From the IMG/VR virus record IMGVR_UViG_2565956618_000007: a stretch of DNA of 56,181 nt; one strand, given 5' to 3'. Under the pieces are notes generated by a model that saw only the letters and a program-made list of their open reading frames with translations, did no database searches and had not been told where the DNA came from. The DNA is from a virus (taxonomy: Duplodnaviria; Heunggongvirae; Uroviricota; Caudoviricetes). Within the stretch, counting starts at the first letter, position 1. Each line of letters opens with the position of its first letter. A program made the translations under genes and the position numbers. Shown here piece by piece: positions 5,254-11,599 of the stretch.

Positions 5254-5829
5254 TTAAGGATTCATTAAGCAATGTCGCAACCACCAATAAATCCGCTTAA
5301 GAACATGAAAATTGATTACTGGTATAAAGCGCTTACAGTTGTTGGCGCTGCGTTGTTTGTCTTTAATGGAACGTCTTTTTTTGACAGATATCCCGTTGTT
5401 CCATTGGGTTTTTTGTCCTCCGGCATCTTTTTTATTGGTTTGGGGGAGTGGATTAATCACCCTCTCAAAGTGAGATTTATTGGCCCTGGAGTTTGGACTC
5501 GTGGATATAATCGTTTTTCGTGCGCACTCGGTATCATCTTCGACATACTTGGTTGTTTCCTGATTGTTACAGGAGTCGTCAAGTTCTTCTGATGTAAAAC
5601 CGCAAATGGGGCACGTAACGGGAATTTTGAAAAGCGTTTCTCCGGGTTCCAGAACAAAATTTTCTGCGGTCTGATTTTGCTTCTCATATTTGTGCTCCGC
5701 GTCATTGTGAGAGCACATTCTTATTCTGAGTGCCTGTTTAAACTCACTGAAGCTGAGAGCTTCTTCGCCTTCGGCAAGGCCTTCGAAGTATTCTTCGTAA
5801 GCCTTTTCCATGATTGTGTCGAAATCCAT
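5254..5829 (-). CDS. Hypothetical dicB-operon protein (ydfABC position); acidic N-terminal domain with Cys-x2-Cys motif
   Basis: Start at MDFDTIMEK with RBS AGGTGAG about 7 nt upstream; N-terminal ~90 aa look protein-like (…KIPVTCPICGF…); C-terminal basic tail is less convincing but no stop occurs before 5254. Confidence 0.5.
   Translation of the reverse strand: MDFDTIMEKAYEEYFEGLAEGEEALSFSEFKQALRIRMCSHNDAEHKYEKQNQTAENFVLEPGETLFKIPVTCPICGFTSEELDDSCNNQETTKYVEDDTECARKTIISTSPNSRANKSHFERVINPLPQTNKKDAGGQKTQWNNGISVKKRRSIKDKQRSANNCKRFIPVINFHVLKRIYWWLRHCLMNP
5272..5592 (+). CDS. Possible small membrane protein encoded antisense within 5254..5829; may be a shadow ORF
   Basis: 106-aa ORF with three hydrophobic stretches; fully embedded antisense in the Lys/Asn-rich tail of the opposite ORF, which could create the hydrophobicity artefactually. 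Confidence 0.25.
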   Translation: MSQPPINPLKNMKIDYWYKALTVVGAALFVFNGTSFFDRYPVVPLGFLSSGIFFIGLGEWINHPLKVRFIGPGVWTRGYNRFSCALGIIFDILGCFLIVTGVVKFF

Positions 5830-6642: not shown

Positions 6643-6870
6643 ATGCTTAAAGTTGACGCAATTACTTTTTTTGGCAGCAAAACAAAGCTTGCCAATGCCG
6701 CAGGAGTGAGACTGGCAAGTGTTGCTGCTTGGGGGATACTGGTTCCTGAAGGTCGCGCGATGCGTCTACAGGAGGCATCTGGCGGGGAGCTTCTGTATGA
6801 TCCCAAGGTTTATGACGAATATCGTAAGACGAAGCGGGCGGGGCGGTTGAACAATGAAAATCACTCCTGA
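6643..6870 (+). CDS. dicC: Cro-like HTH protein, DicC-like
   Basis: ATG at 6643 preceded by RBS GAGGGGG; 75-aa product with …FGSKTKLANAAGVRLASVAAWG…PEGRAMRLQ… Cro/DicC-type signature; divergent from repressor. Confidence 0.8.
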   Translation: MLKVDAITFFGSKTKLANAAGVRLASVAAWGILVPEGRAMRLQEASGGELLYDPKVYDEYRKTKRAGRLNNENHS

Positions 6871-7375
6871 ACAGGCTCGTGAGGCTCTGGATGCCTGGAT
6901 ATGTCGACCAGGAATGACACAGGAGCAGGCGACGATATTAATCACTGAAGCATTCTGGGCTTTGAAAGAGCGCCCGAACATCGATGTTCAGCGTGTCACA
7001 GATGAAGGTGGCGCGGTTGATCAGCGAGCGCTTGGCGTTAATCGAGTGAAGATATTCGAACGCTGGAAGGCTATCGACACCAGGGATAAGCGTGAAAAGT
7101 TCACGGCGCTAGTGCCTGCAATTATGGAGGCTATCCGGATTAATGATTTCAGGTTGTATCGTGAAATTAGTGACGGAAAAAGCATCACGTACATGATCGC
7201 CGGGTTAAACAAAGAATATGGCGATGTGGTGGAGTCCGGACTGCTTTTTGCTGATCCTGCCGTAGTGGATCGTGAAACTGACGAACTTATAGAAAAAGCA
7301 ATTGCTTTCAAACTTGCGTATCGACAGCAATACCAACAAAAAGCTGGATGGAATTATGAGCCTTCTTTTTGCTGA
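6854..7375 (+). CDS. YdaT-like early-operon protein
   Basis: 173-aa ORF overlapping the end of the Cro-like gene; position matches ydaT-type genes after cro in Rac/Qin-like prophages; sequence assignment tentative. Confidence 0.55.
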   Translation: MKITPEQAREALDAWICRPGMTQEQATILITEAFWALKERPNIDVQRVTDEGGAVDQRALGVNRVKIFERWKAIDTRDKREKFTALVPAIMEAIRINDFRLYREISDGKSITYMIAGLNKEYGDVVESGLLFADPAVVDRETDELIEKAIAFKLAYRQQYQQKAGWNYEPSFC

Positions 7376-8321
7376 ACGCCCACTGGTTATAAACACACAG
7401 CTTGCGATGAAGATTGGCTTAAATGAAGCCATTGTGTTGCAGCAGTTGCATTACTGGTTGAGAGATACCAATTCCGGCATGGAATGTGATGGTGTTCGCT
7501 GGATTTACAACACAACGGAACAATGGCTGGAACAGTTCCCATTCTGGTCAGAGTCAACGTTAAAGCGCGCGTTTGCAAGTCTGAAAACGCTGGGGCTTTT
7601 GCGTTGTGAAAAGCTCAATAAATCAAAGCGCGATATGACCAATTTCTACACGATTAACTATGGGAGCGAGCTTTTAGATGATGGCAAATTGAGCGAATCC
7701 ATCGGTTCAAAATGCGCCGCTCCATCAGGTCAAAATGACACGATGGAAGAGGTCAAAATGAAACGCTCCATTGGTTCAAAACGACCCAATGTCATCGGGT
7801 CAAAATGGCCCGATGATCCTACAGAGAATACAACAGAGATTACTACAGAGAATAAAAACACTTTTCGTCCGGAAGCTTCGCAACCGGACCCGCAGACGGC
7901 TGAACAGGATTTTTTAATCCGGCACCCTGGCGCAGTTGTGTTTAGTGCGAAAAAACGCCAGTGGGGTAGCCAGGAGGATCTGGCGTGTGCGCAGTGGATA
8001 TGGGGGCGGATCGTGGGTCTCTACGAACAGGCCGCCAGTGATGATGGCGAGATCATGCGACCAAAAGAGCCTAACTGGACTGTCTGGGCCAATGATGTGC
8101 GCACAATGCGGATGCTGGATGGCAGAAGCCACAGACAAATTTGTGAAATGTTTGGTCGGGTACAGCGGGATCCATTCTGGGTAAAAAACATCATGAGCCC
8201 GTCAAAGCTCCGCGAAAAATGGGACGAACTGGTCATCCGCCTGGGGCGTTCACCTGTACAGCGTTGTGTTAATCATATTTCTGAACCGGATACAGAAATT
8301 CCGCCTGGTTTCAGAGGATAA
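7356..8321 (+). CDS. Phage replication initiation protein (O-like, iteron-containing; C-terminal DnaT-like region)
   Basis: ATG at 7356 (the 7302 start in the ORF track is TTG inside the upstream gene); N-terminal wHTH-like segment; internal repeated SIGSK/IGSK peptide motifs encoded by DNA iterons; position after cro-like genes. Confidence 0.7.
   Translation: MSLLFAERPLVINTQLAMKIGLNEAIVLQQLHYWLRDTNSGMECDGVRWIYNTTEQWLEQFPFWSESTLKRAFASLKTLGLLRCEKLNKSKRDMTNFYTINYGSELLDDGKLSESIGSKCAAPSGQNDTMEEVKMKRSIGSKRPNVIGSKWPDDPTENTTEITTENKNTFRPEASQPDPQTAEQDFLIRHPGAVVFSAKKRQWGSQEDLACAQWIWGRIVGLYEQAASDDGEIMRPKEPNWTVWANDVRTMRMLDGRSHRQICEMFGRVQRDPFWVKNIMSPSKLREKWDELVIRLGRSPVQRCVNHISEPDTEIPPGFRG
7704..7809 (+). 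repeat. Five iterons GGT(T/C)CAAAA(T/C)G at 22-26 bp spacing inside the replication gene, followed by AT-rich ACAGAGAATA direct repeats: candidate ori
   Basis: Copies start at about 7704, 7728, 7751, 7773 and 7799; arrangement mirrors lambda ori inside gene O (iterons followed by an AT-rich segment). Confidence 0.6.
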
Positions 8322-8361: not shown

Positions 8362-8763
8362 GTGGCAAAAGTTTTTACACAAGAAGAGCGGGAAAAAATT
8401 AAAGGGCAGGTGGTGGAACTCGTGCGCCAGAGCGGTCGTGAGACGTTACGGCAACTGGAAGCTAAAACAGGTGCGACTAGATATCTGATGAGCGTTCTTG
8501 CCAGAGAGCTGGTAGCCAGTGGCGATGTATACAACTCCGGCTACGGGTTATTCCCGTCTGAACAGGCGCGTAAGGACTGGCAAAACGCCCGCAAAAAACT
8601 CTCGAGGGCAAAGGTGAAGAAAACAGCTGTGGTTGATCCGGACCTTATCTGGTCGTTACCTGATGGAGAAATACGTCGCTACGACAGTCGCCTAAACATA
8701 ATCTGTCGCGAGTGCCGGATGAGTGAAGTTATGCAGCGCATACTGGCATTTTATCAGGGATAA
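8362..8763 (+). CDS. Hypothetical protein (GTG start)
   Basis: 133-aa ORF with RBS AAGGGGG 5 nt upstream of GTG; basic, possibly DNA-binding; no family recognised. Confidence 0.55.
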   Translation: MAKVFTQEEREKIKGQVVELVRQSGRETLRQLEAKTGATRYLMSVLARELVASGDVYNSGYGLFPSEQARKDWQNARKKLSRAKVKKTAVVDPDLIWSLPDGEIRRYDSRLNIICRECRMSEVMQRILAFYQG

Positions 8764-8981
8764 TGTTAGGTATTTTAGACGTTACTAGATTAAAAAGCAT
8801 TAGTTCAGGAGTGAATTGACATTCTCATTTTTCATGGCACAGGGTAGATCTGGCGTGGTTGTCCGCTTTGTGCCAAAAGCGGACATCGAATAATTTCAGC
8901 AGCACTCAACCTTATTAACCAAATCGCCTCAACTCATATGGACATGCATCCGGAAGTGCCAACTTCGTAAACTTATTCACT

Positions 8982-10769
8982 TTAAGTCTGAGCCTCACTC
9001 TCTTGGCCATAAGTGGCTTGCCAGTATCTCGCCGTAGGGTTCATTAGAATGTGCAATACAAGCCACCATGCAAAAATGCAGGGAGGTTGATTGTAGTAAC
9101 CGGCAGGCACATATCCGTGAGCTAGTTGATTTCGTAAATCACCATAGATTTTATCTACCAGTAAGGCCTGAAGATTGCCAATTATGTCTACGCCGAAAGC
9201 TTCAATAATCAGTGGATTATCTAGTAATCCCTTGAGTCCATTTCGCTCTTGCGAACCGTCCCCGTGAAGCTGCGATGGTTCCTCACCTTTAATTTTAGCC
9301 ACATATCTCAGACTATTTTCGATCTGGGGAATCAACACGTGGCATGCCGTCATAAAATCTCCATTGAAACCGCAAACCATACCCTTGATGAAAAACTCTT
9401 CATGCCCAAACGGGATGAAGGGATGATTGATGAACATATCGCGAAAAAACGCCTCCGAGATTGGATATTTCATTGTGATCTCATCTGTAGCAGGAATAAT
9501 TTGCCCAGCTACTGCCAACTCATGGTCGATACGCATTCTCGTCATCATTATGGGCCAAATAACTGCCCCATTTGCATCATCAATCCCCAATCCTGCGGGT
9601 ATGCGAGCAAGTGTCATTCCCTCATGATCAATATGTGTTGATCCAAACATCCAAGCTATGCTGTTGGCCTTTTGTTCTATTGCTTGAGCCTTAAGTCTCT
9701 CAATGCTGGTTGGCCGACAGACCAGCATCGCAAGTCTGAAAACCATATCAAACAAATCTCTTCCGACTACCCGACTCTTGGCTTGATGGACAATCTCACT
9801 AATATCTTGAGGGGGAGACTGAAGGATAGACATCTGGTGACGGGATTCGATTTGGTAATCACGCATTTCTTCATACAGCGCAAGACGTTCTATTCGGGTT
9901 CCTGGAATATTAGCCAGTGCTTCAATAGCATTCTGCATGCAGGCTGCCGAAATCATACCGCCATCTTGGAATTTTGACTCTTCCAGATGTGTATCGGCAA
10001 GAAGCCGCCAGAATTCAAACTGTGTATCTCTGTCACAGCACCTATTCGCAATCGGGATTGCGGTTTTACAGGCATCGACGGCAAATGAAAATAATTTTTG
10101 AGCCAGATAGTTTTTTGTCAGAAACAGGAGTTCCTGGGCAATAAAAGATGGCTCACTCACTTTACAGTCGATATCGAGTTGCAGGAGTCGCAGCGGATAA
10201 GGTGAATCGCCTTGTTCTCTGGTACGTTCATACTCTGCTAGTAGATGTGCCGAAAGCTGATCAAATTCATCCCTGAAATCAGTATGCTTTCGAAAAAAAC
10301 AACACAGCCTAAGCGCACGCTCTAGGCGTTCTAAAGCACTAACCCACGTCCCTTGCGATGTCATAATAGCTATACTGGACGCATAATAAGCACGGACTGC
10401 CAGCAAAGGAAAACGGATTCCACCAATTTTACGAACCCAAAGTGTATCAGCAATACGAGCTTGAAGTTCGGGTAGCTCTATCGTCGGGCAAAATTGAGAA
10501 AGTACCTCCAGCGACAACCCGTTAATGTCATCCGGAATTGCAGATCTACCTTGGCTGCTTTGAAAGCACGGACCAAATGGTACCTGTGGATTTTCGGGAC
10601 GAAAGTGAAAACCGCAAATATGGGTTAGCAGTCTTATCTCCGCTCTTCCATCACCTAGGCTAGAAAGATACTTTGTGATATCAAAGCAGGTAACTGGCAG
10701 CTTACTCTGGATTAAGGGGGATAAATCAATAGTGTTAAGTTCGTCGAGGCTGATATTAATATCGTCCAT
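8982..10769 (-). CDS. Large hypothetical protein with C-terminal HEPN-like R-x4-H motif; candidate defence / abortive-infection moron
   Basis: 595-aa ORF on the strand opposite to flanking phage genes, in a visibly AT-richer segment flanked by long intergenic regions; C-terminal …DKIYGDLRNQLAHGY… fits the HEPN R-x4-6-H signature. Confidence 0.8.
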   Translation of the reverse strand: MDDINISLDELNTIDLSPLIQSKLPVTCFDITKYLSSLGDGRAEIRLLTHICGFHFRPENPQVPFGPCFQSSQGRSAIPDDINGLSLEVLSQFCPTIELPELQARIADTLWVRKIGGIRFPLLAVRAYYASSIAIMTSQGTWVSALERLERALRLCCFFRKHTDFRDEFDQLSAHLLAEYERTREQGDSPYPLRLLQLDIDCKVSEPSFIAQELLFLTKNYLAQKLFSFAVDACKTAIPIANRCCDRDTQFEFWRLLADTHLEESKFQDGGMISAACMQNAIEALANIPGTRIERLALYEEMRDYQIESRHQMSILQSPPQDISEIVHQAKSRVVGRDLFDMVFRLAMLVCRPTSIERLKAQAIEQKANSIAWMFGSTHIDHEGMTLARIPAGLGIDDANGAVIWPIMMTRMRIDHELAVAGQIIPATDEITMKYPISEAFFRDMFINHPFIPFGHEEFFIKGMVCGFNGDFMTACHVLIPQIENSLRYVAKIKGEEPSQLHGDGSQERNGLKGLLDNPLIIEAFGVDIIGNLQALLVDKIYGDLRNQLAHGYVPAGYYNQPPCIFAWWLVLHILMNPTARYWQATYGQESEAQT

Positions 10770-11279
10770 GTCGTCACCTTGATGATTTGTTAATGCGGGG
10801 GCAACATTAATAAATGTACTTGAGACCGCAATTTGTCGATGGAGCCAACATTTATAACTATGTGCTTCTACCCTCTGAATTTTTACATGTGAATTGCTAG
10901 CTTGAATAGCTCTATCATTATATACGTGGCACTAAATTATGGCTGTTTTTCGCTCAAAGCGGACTAGAAGGTTAGCTTGTGTCGGACTTTGCGTATTAAA
11001 AGAAGTGCTGGTGGTGACTAGTGGTTGTGCCCCATTTCCACAGAAAAAATCAGAGAAACTATACCCAATAGTTGTATTGAATCACTGACGAGACAGCCTC
11101 ATATTCATCAGGACTGGTCTACGTCCAATACAGGAGGTTGTGGTGCTGGTTCTCAAATGTGCGCTGGCTATTACGGCTGTAATGGCGATTTATTGTCTTG
11201 CTATTGTTCTTATGGATCGCCTTTCTGACTGATTTCACATTGGCGAGGTAACGGTAGTTAAGTAGAATGGCTGCGGGTG

Positions 11280-11400
11280 CTTGAGGCTATCTGCCTCGGG
11301 CATGAACACCAACGGCAGATAGAGAAAAGCCCCAGTTAACATTACGCGTCCTGCAAGACGCTTAACATTAATCTGAGGCCAATTTCATGCTAGACATATG
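11280..11400 (-). ncRNA. Expected location of a Sok-type antisense RNA for the hok locus (not demonstrated)
   Basis: By analogy with hok/sok loci the antisense RNA overlaps the leader/upstream in-frame extension of hok; no promoter or terminator confidently identified. Confidence 0.2.
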
Positions 11401-11443
11401 TAGGTTAGCCTCTTACGTGCCGAAAGGCAAGGAGAAGCAGGCT

Positions 11444-11599
11444 ATGAAGCAGCAAAAGGCGATGTTAATCGCCCTGATCGTCATCTGTTTAACCGTCATA
11501 GTGACGGCACTGGTAACGAGGAAAGACCTCTGCGAGGTACGAATCCGAACCGGCCAGACGGAGGTCGCTGTCTTCACAGCTTACGAACCTGAGGAGTAA
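11444..11599 (+). CDS. hokD: Hok/Gef-family type I toxin
   Basis: 51-aa peptide MKQQKAMLIALIVICLTVIVTALVTRKDLCEVRIRTGQTEVAVFTAYEPEE matches remembered HokD/RelF; ORF track shows an in-frame upstream extension from 11387 (mok-like). Confidence 0.85.
   Translation: MKQQKAMLIALIVICLTVIVTALVTRKDLCEVRIRTGQTEVAVFTAYEPEE

Follow-up and report, generated by a model that had tools for sequence, protein, structure and literature searches.

The locus examined here raises the question of what a large gene, placed antisense to everything around it, does beside the hok toxin of a lambdoid prophage. The window (the whole stretch analysed, 56,181 nucleotides of the Caudoviricetes record IMGVR_UViG_2565956618_000007) is in this region 100% identical to a Qin-type prophage located beside ynfA and rspAB in Escherichia coli ATCC 25922 and related strains. 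An earlier note, made from the DNA letters alone, had pointed to a large open reading frame (ORF) on the strand opposite to the surrounding phage genes. Indeed, an ORF of 595 amino acids occupies 8982..10769 on the minus strand, whereas its neighbours (YdaT-like, O-like replication and DUF977 genes upstream; hokD, rem, ydfU and ydfT downstream) are all on the plus strand. Its product is identical to RefSeq WP_000340969.1, annotated in E. coli ATCC 25922 as a "DUF4209 domain-containing protein", and this exact protein was seen on 866 contigs. With little more than even confidence, we propose that the gene encodes a single-polypeptide HEPN-type ribonuclease that would be expressed in the lysogen as cargo (a "moron") and would exclude competing phages. 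As a prediction this is not new, since the HEPN assignment dates from 2013 and the candidacy for defence comes from PADLOC and DefensePredictor.

The C terminus contains the motif GDLRNQLAHGY, which the earlier note had read as the signature of a HEPN domain, and this reading held up. Pfam DUF4209 (PF13910) matched amino acids 484-573 with an E value of 3.3e-8 and 33.9 bits against a cut-off of 22.3, covering positions 2-88 of the 89 in the profile, and the matches to DUF4209 and to the N-terminal DUF7380 both exceeded the curated gathering cut-offs. Across 64 aligned homologues, with identities as low as ~25%, Q306, G384, L479, Q482, E484, S486, R488, R546, H551 and G552 were invariant; R546 and H551 form the R-x4-H motif, and Q482, E484, S486 and R488 belong to a second motif, QIENSLR. 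In a full-length AlphaFold model with a predicted local distance difference test score (pLDDT) of 91.1, the R-x4-H motif lies at the start of a helix (H545-551), and QIENSLR sits on the long helix preceding it (residues 472-493 in the model). By structural comparison the C-terminal domain of the model adopts a predicted helical-bundle HEPN fold. The closest neighbours of the modelled domain were HepT toxins of HEPN-MNT pairs, such as SO_3166 (5yep) and 7ae2; further neighbours of the model included AF0298, YutE, HI0074 and other HEPN-type domains that stand alone, three Csm6 structures, AbiA's C-terminal domain, and the non-catalytic HEPN proteins MtlR and sacsin (the latter with its HEPN domain), and Las1, RnlA, LsoA and AbiV appeared lower in the list. 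Since the Pfam match, the invariant R-x4-H motif and the structural neighbours all point the same way, we are highly confident that the C-terminal domain is HEPN. The invariance of the R-x4-H dyad and of four further polar residues argues for a catalytically active domain. HEPN ribonucleases, which act independently of metal, generally build their active site across a dimer.

DUF4209 was described by Anantharaman et al. 2013 (PMC3710099) as the C6orf70-type family of the HEPN superfamily, which in bacteria is "fused to TPR" and "occurs in R-M related operons" (R-M, restriction-modification). The remaining 500 or so residues, in which the earlier note had recognised nothing, did not stay unassigned: ~470 residues are made up of the DUF7380 domain and a TPR-like solenoid. 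A TPR-like character of the central region fits the weak TPR matches, which were all that a search of the PDB with a family profile returned; a PDB search with the single sequence gave nothing meaningful, and neither a solved structure of a relative nor one sharing the whole architecture was found in the PDB sequence searches. NCBIfam gave no match to the 595-amino-acid protein, and the viral fold library BFVD gave nothing at E <= 0.001, with hits to giant-virus TPR/SNAP repeats only. No known phage structural or replication family was matched in PHROG, where the sole matches were to two families of unknown function.

An exhaustive homologue search returned 3331 cluster representatives (clusters at 50% identity) at E <= 1e-3 and 846 at E <= 1e-30. 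Nearly all of them are ~600 amino acids long, and thus the family has kept its three-part architecture. Members with a name belong to Gammaproteobacteria and Cyanobacteria; relatives carried on plasmids were seen in Alphaproteobacteria, Deinococcus, Bacillus, Chloroflexota and one haloarchaeon. Conservation was highest in the HEPN block (amino acids 461-500), and the first ~100 residues and the solenoid were the most variable parts, a pattern that fits a conserved effector joined to a putative diversifying recognition surface.

Searches against defence models placed the protein in a catalogued candidate family. In PADLOC it matched PDC-S39 over its full length (PDLC05012, E 2.1e-102, amino acids 43-581; PDLC05011, E 7.3e-102), so that the search of HEPN, Abi and DUF models proposed in the earlier note gave DUF4209 and DUF7380 from Pfam and PDC-S39 from PADLOC. 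Relatives from a P2-like phage and an Enterobacter prophage matched these PDC-S39 models too. The comparison to ribonucleases of the abortive infection (Abi) type stands as an analogy but not as a membership, since no PADLOC Abi model matches: the models of AbiD/F, AbiJ, AbiU2, AbiV, HEC-08, DS-11 and ApeA gave no match at E <= 1. In the supplementary tables of DefensePredictor, E. coli DUF4209 proteins are listed as "Predicted novel defense gene"; the entries include WP_021514655.1 (595 amino acids, from an ECOR assembly, mean log-odds 4.34) and a 602-amino-acid form with log-odds of 7.4. The shared length and name suggest that WP_021514655.1 is a close relative of the protein studied here, and it may be the same protein. 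HHblits results in the same tables indicate a weak similarity of the E. coli DUF4209 proteins to the C-terminal part of AbiJ (probability 66-67%). In the single-protein systems HEC-08 and DS-11, mutation of the HEPN motif abolishes defence.

Three prophages with other cargo match the backbone of the window up to 8884-8886 and again from 10943-10950, and from these shared junctions it follows that the gene and its own flanks form a discrete cassette of ~2.06 kb in a fixed slot. This ORF is the only one that the cassette holds, with no other ORF with a domain match in 8887-10946. A 10-bp perfect inverted repeat lies exactly at the left junction and shows up as a hairpin when the RNA is folded; it could serve either as a shared terminator or as a hotspot of recombination through which cargo is exchanged. 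The cassette also occurs outside phages. On the Klebsiella pneumoniae IncFIB/IncFII conjugative plasmid NZ_CP031801.1 (L016, 6809-8909), a homologous copy extends over window positions 8861-10962, including the inverted repeat, with 96.6% identity at the DNA level and 97.5% at the protein level, and adjoins an IS110 transposase, a group II intron and an antirestriction gene. The presence of the same cassette in a prophage and in Klebsiella plasmids shows a recent transfer between prophage and plasmid.

The two copies differ by 38 synonymous and 16 nonsynonymous changes, which corresponds to a ratio of nonsynonymous to synonymous substitution rates (dN/dS) of 0.11; by this sequence comparison, the gene is under purifying selection. 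The value bears directly on whether the gene might be a decaying, non-functional passenger. A few E. coli copies are indeed truncated or broken by an IS3 insertion, but 147 of the 152 copies found in 5426 complete E. coli genomes span at least 80% of the ORF, and the full-length architecture of ~600 amino acids is kept in thousands of representatives. Decay is therefore a very remote explanation. Moreover, the Pfam matches above the gathering cut-offs, the thousands of homologous representatives (3331) and the low dN/dS together mark the ORF, on the sequence evidence, as clearly a genuine gene and not a chance reading frame.

The slot itself, between the DUF977/Ren-like gene and hok/sok of Qin- and Rac-type E. 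coli prophages, is bordered by 8764-8886 and 10947-11274. Ten different states were seen, counting the present cassette. The others were a NUDIX protein (matching PDC-S07) with a HAD protein; a 340-amino-acid hypothetical protein with an IS4-family element; a 269-amino-acid hypothetical protein on the reverse strand; an FRG-domain protein matching PDC-S15 with an E value of 7e-99; an integrase fragment with a hypothetical protein; a 752-amino-acid NACHT-domain protein, named from RefSeq annotation only; an alpha/beta-hydrolase; QueH; and, in K-12 Qin, relB-relE with ydfV and flxA. The comparison with allelic prophages that the earlier note had called for thus shows both junctions (~8886 and ~10947) in common among three alleles, together with varied cargo that includes recognised defence genes, and the slot behaves as a cargo hotspot. 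As the earlier note had stated, relBE stands beside hokD in K-12 Qin, with relB-relE immediately upstream of hokD. The idea of a swap with relBE at a hotspot was borne out as far as the hotspot is concerned, by the alleles sharing both junctions, but K-12 is not a clean allele: its homology stops at window position 7133 and resumes at 11430, and therefore the replication genes, the DUF977 gene and the sok/mok leader are missing from K-12 as well. Hence, relBE is one of many states of the slot, and the alleles with both junctions support the hotspot more strongly than relBE does. BLR(DE3) was considered as an empty site and rejected, because its deletion joins window position 8658 to 11120 and removes the end of the DUF977 gene. 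Several of the cargo proteins in the slot are without a PADLOC match and could be new candidates.

The occupation of the relBE position, next to hok/sok, raises the question of whether the protein might be an addiction or stabilisation toxin, that is, a self-inhibited HEPN toxin that penalises loss of the prophage or plasmid, like hok/sok and relBE. HepT toxins are the closest structural neighbours of the modelled domain, and the IncF plasmid copy lies in a region that also carries the partition genes sopA and parB. However, neither an MNT nor another antitoxin gene is present in the cassette, no conserved partner was seen in the contexts examined, and post-segregational killing requires a labile antidote, which a single stable polypeptide does not supply. 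In addition, the junctions place hok/sok in the backbone, independent of the cargo. We regard a role in addiction as quite improbable.

A second phage lineage carries the family as well. In the P2-like phage vB_EcoM-569R9 a 643-amino-acid PDC-S39 member (E 8.5e-85; L014, 4041-5972) is encoded between the replication gene A and the portal gene Q. It is divergent, with 24% identity over the C-terminal half, and keeps the motifs LIPQxE...R and LRxxLAHG; a related ORF612 was deposited from P2-EC46 (L015, 220-2058). The A-Q position is that of the tin/old variable locus of P2, at which characterised cargo protects the lysogen. No test of the PDC-S39/DUF4209 family was found in the passages seen of the P2-hotspot paper of Rousset et al. 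Since the gene is carried by lambdoid and P2-like phages, and phage ribonucleases that take over the host are known, it might alternatively be an offensive or counter-defence factor of lytic growth, for example a ribonuclease degrading host mRNA, CRISPR RNAs or a retron noncoding RNA. Its orientation antisense to the early-right operon, which places it outside the lytic transcription programme, speaks against this, as do its frequency in bacterial chromosomes and plasmids without surrounding phage and the location of the P2-like relative at a locus whose characterised cargo protects the lysogen. Such a lytic function is more improbable still than one in addiction.

Is the protein then necessarily immune? 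In other genomes the surroundings vary. No conserved partner gene was found, and the neighbours differ in the five contexts examined (Vibrio, Pseudomonas, a cyanobacterium, Enterobacter and the P2-like phage); with no obligatory partner in these and one ORF in the cassette, the gene stands alone, as the PDC-S39 models describe. The Vibrio cholerae homologue lies in a small chromosomal islet between tauE and carB, that of Pseudomonas lies among hypothetical genes and a HigA-like gene, and that of Enterobacter kobei, which matches PDC-S39, lies in a prophage between the antiterminator Q and a holin gene. In the cyanobacterium Trichocoleus the homologue is followed, with a 4-bp overlap, by a PIN-domain gene (L011, 9926-10348) that is absent from the other contexts examined; a two-nuclease arrangement is possible.

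These contexts bear on a further explanation, namely that the protein processes or regulates RNA without an immune role, as a catalytic or ligand-binding HEPN protein and a neutral or host-beneficial passenger that targets particular transcripts of the host, in line with a suggestion made for ERMARD. The family includes eukaryotic C6orf70/ERMARD, which has been traced to the last eukaryotic common ancestor and has a predicted role in endoplasmic reticulum (ER)-associated RNA degradation (PMC3710099). The V. cholerae and Pseudomonas homologues stand among housekeeping genes, the non-catalytic MtlR and sacsin are among the structural neighbours, and the slot also holds metabolic-looking cargo (QueH, NUDIX/HAD, hydrolase). 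On the other hand, the invariant R-x4-H and the four further polar residues argue for catalysis, and the distribution is patchy: the gene is present in only 2.8% of the complete E. coli genomes, where all copies are chromosomal, at least 99% identical and essentially always in the DUF977-hok slot. Furthermore, three different cargo slots of phages contain it, as do conjugative plasmids, and two independent defence predictors flagged it. A non-immune role is therefore unlikely, and we consider an anti-phage role of the protein moderately probable.

How might a lysogen-expressed HEPN ribonuclease exclude other phages? The protein would be made in the lysogen from its own promoter, for which a perfect TATAAT hexamer at 10917-10922 with a weak -35 is the only candidate. 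The N-terminal region would keep the HEPN nuclease inactive until a cue of infection, in all likelihood a phage protein, is recognised and bound by the TPR-like/DUF7380 region. Binding of the cue might free or dimerise the HEPN domains, and the enzyme would then cut cellular and/or phage RNA (tRNA, rRNA or mRNA), stop translation and abort the infection. The orientation antisense to the pR-type early operon would lower expression when the own prophage is induced.

Several points weigh against such an exclusion function. Putative parts of this scheme are its trigger and RNA target, the dimerisation step, the promoter, and the expression of the gene in the lysogen. In the searchable literature no experimental test of the DUF4209/DUF7380/PDC-S39 family was found, and PDC-S39 appears there only in genome counts, for example of O157:H7 ECRC98 and Pseudomonas aeruginosa PAO1. 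In one study of candidate systems (seven PDC and one HEC), four of the eight were protective. The DefensePredictor log-odds of the 595-amino-acid E. coli protein are modest (4.3), and neither E. coli DUF4209 gene is listed among the cloned units tabulated there. Certain homologues occupy small islets of the chromosome that are flanked by core genes and lack evident neighbours of a mobile or defence kind (as in the tauE-carB islet of V. cholerae), and the eukaryotic relatives C6orf70/ERMARD are not known as immune proteins.

If phage restriction by this gene is true, PDC-S39 would turn from a catalogued candidate into a validated single-gene system, in a family of more than 3000 cluster representatives at 50% identity from Proteobacteria, Cyanobacteria and other phyla, plasmids and temperate phages. 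Once validated, a TPR-gated HEPN ribonuclease would join the immune architectures that need no nucleoside triphosphatase (NTPase) and would open a functional route to the ERMARD family of eukaryotes, which is uncharacterised. More speculatively, and we would give it well under an even chance, PDC-S39 may comprise widespread immune ribonucleases that recognise patterns directly and independently of an NTPase, in which a fast-evolving DUF7380/TPR surface binds a phage protein and unleashes the DUF4209 HEPN domain, and which are ancestral to eukaryotic ERMARD (C6orf70); if so, an antiviral ribonuclease of bacteria would be the ancestor of a human ER-associated protein that has been linked to brain malformation. 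The gene is readily testable as a self-contained 2.06-kb cassette in the quality-control strain ATCC 25922, and the ren-to-hok slot of Qin- and Rac-type prophages seems to be a rich hotspot of cargo that is easy to mine.

The coordinates of the gene, its domains and its surroundings are listed in Table 1. The gaps beside the ORF, given earlier as about 220 and 617 bp, measured 218 bp (8764-8981) and 617 bp (10770-11386), and the final ~110 bp of the latter (from 11275) are part of the hok/sok regulatory RNA region. The description of the segment as AT-richer is right in direction, but the difference is modest: the G+C content is 0.44-0.46 in the ORF and 0.40-0.41 in the region upstream of it, compared with 0.49-0.52 in the flanks. 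A scan for consensus promoters returned no qualifying promoter for the 595-amino-acid gene; the TATAAT went uncalled because of its weak -35, the best candidate being CAGCCA with three of six consensus matches. The terminator scan found a hairpin without a T-run at the 3' end of the gene, and the fold of the 3' region was not unusual (z -0.7).

Table 1. Positions in the window of the gene, its domains, its expression signals, the cassette and the backbone neighbours
Feature	Coordinates	Strand	Remarks
595-aa ORF, DUF7380 / TPR-like / DUF4209 (HEPN) protein	8982..10769	-	ATG start
DUF7380 domain, N-terminal, aa 4-166	10272..10760	-	Pfam PF24098, E 3.4e-34
Central helical-repeat (TPR-like) solenoid, ~aa 167-375	9645..10271	-	approximate boundaries; repeat helices may start at ~aa 84
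C-terminal HEPN domain (very probable), ~aa 457-595	8985..9401	-	Pfam DUF4209 match inside, aa 484-573
R-x4-H motif RNQLAH (R546...H551), predicted catalytic dyad	9117..9134	-	coordinates checked
QIENSLR, second invariant motif	9306..9326	-	Q482, E484, S486, R488 invariant
Shine-Dalgarno AAGGTGA	10774..10780	-	4-nt spacer, then ATG at 10767-10769; read from sequence
Perfect TATAAT hexamer, possible -10 of the gene's own promoter	10917..10922	-	inside cassette; read from sequence; inference only
Cargo cassette, ~2.06 kb	8887..10946		gene with own upstream and downstream DNA in fixed prophage slot
10-bp perfect inverted repeat (GTCCGCTTTG/CAAAGCGGAC-type hairpin)	8861..8886		exactly at left cassette junction
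DUF977 / "Ren-like exclusion protein" gene, left backbone neighbour	8362..8763	+	Pfam DUF977, E 6e-27; phrog_142, E 1.9e-44
Intact hok/sok/mok locus, right backbone neighbour	11275..11599	+	adjacent by position, outside cassette
Rfam sok match	11275-11449		112.7 bits, E 5.6e-26, full-length
mok-like ORF	from 11387	+	within hok/sok/mok locus
hokD coding sequence	11444-11599	+	RefSeq annotation
Promoter-like site TTGGCG-17-TAGAAT	11240-11268		near hok/sok locus

The backbone on both sides deserves a few remarks of its own. The name "Ren-like exclusion protein" of the DUF977 gene comes from PHROGs. On the right, the hok gene that the earlier note had placed next to the ORF was present as described (Pfam HOK_GEF, E 2.9e-23), with an intact sok/mok leader. 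A functional coupling of the 595-amino-acid gene to hok/sok was considered and rejected, since hok/sok is part of the conserved backbone and is there regardless of which cargo is carried. The full sok/mok/hok regulatory region is kept here; the homology of K-12 Qin starts no more than 14 bp ahead of the hokD start codon, with relE directly adjoining hokD (K-12 locus 5276-5346 compared with window 11275-11449), from which it follows that hokD of K-12 has been deprived of the leader and antisense RNA of its own. In the conserved backbone, a short way upstream of the hok promoter, we noticed an unannotated ORF of 29 codons (11143-11232, plus strand) with the Shine-Dalgarno sequence AGGAGG at 11132-11137, which encodes the hydrophobic peptide VLVLKCALAITAVMAIYCLAIVLMDRLSD. 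It is intact in seven other alleles (86-100% nucleotide identity), with conservative substitutions only, and gave no PHROG match; its product may be a small membrane protein or the gene may be type I toxin-like. The early-right region encodes a YdaT-family "toxin" protein (6854-7375) and an O-like replication initiator (7302-8321; phrog_391, E 3.5e-92). Since K-12 Qin is without the O-like gene, the prophage of ATCC 25922 seems much more complete than the remnant that is K-12 Qin.

How does the protein compare with named systems? Of PDC-S39 it is a full member that shows no difference, a single gene of ~600 amino acids in a family that is a candidate only. With C6orf70/ERMARD (Pfam DUF4209, also EMARD_N) it shares the conserved R-x4-H motif and a DUF4209 match above the cut-off; the eukaryotic members have a transmembrane segment, are ER associated and are in some cases fused to WD40 (PMC3710099), whereas the protein studied here is a soluble bacterial form with an N-terminal DUF7380. 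The HepT proteins of HEPN-MNT pairs (type VII toxin-antitoxin systems) are stand-alone domains of ~130 amino acids that are neutralised by the adjacent MNT nucleotidyltransferase. Here, in contrast, the HEPN domain is the tail of a 595-amino-acid protein, and no MNT or nucleotidyltransferase gene was found in the cassette or adjoining the homologues in the contexts examined.

The relBE pair of K-12 Qin occupies the same place with respect to hokD, rem, ydfU and ydfT and is likewise cargo of the RNA-targeting toxin kind, but its proteins are unrelated, and its two genes, a toxin-antitoxin pair, lie on the strand that also carries hokD. In the sensor-gated HEPN ribonucleases Csm6/Csx1 (CARF-HEPN) and RNase L/Ire1 (KEN) the regulatory parts are of another nature, since neither a CARF nor a kinase or ankyrin domain is present in the protein described here, and no cyclic-oligonucleotide synthase is linked to it; its sensor would be a TPR-like surface that binds a protein or peptide. 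A likeness in overall design exists to HEC-08 (DUF3644 HEPN with zinc fingers), DS-11 (CBS with HEPN), AbiJ, AbiV, AbiD/F and ApeA, in which a HEPN nuclease and a non-catalytic domain are likewise joined in one polypeptide, and from all of these it is set apart by its putative regulatory module, the DUF7380 domain with the TPR-like solenoid.

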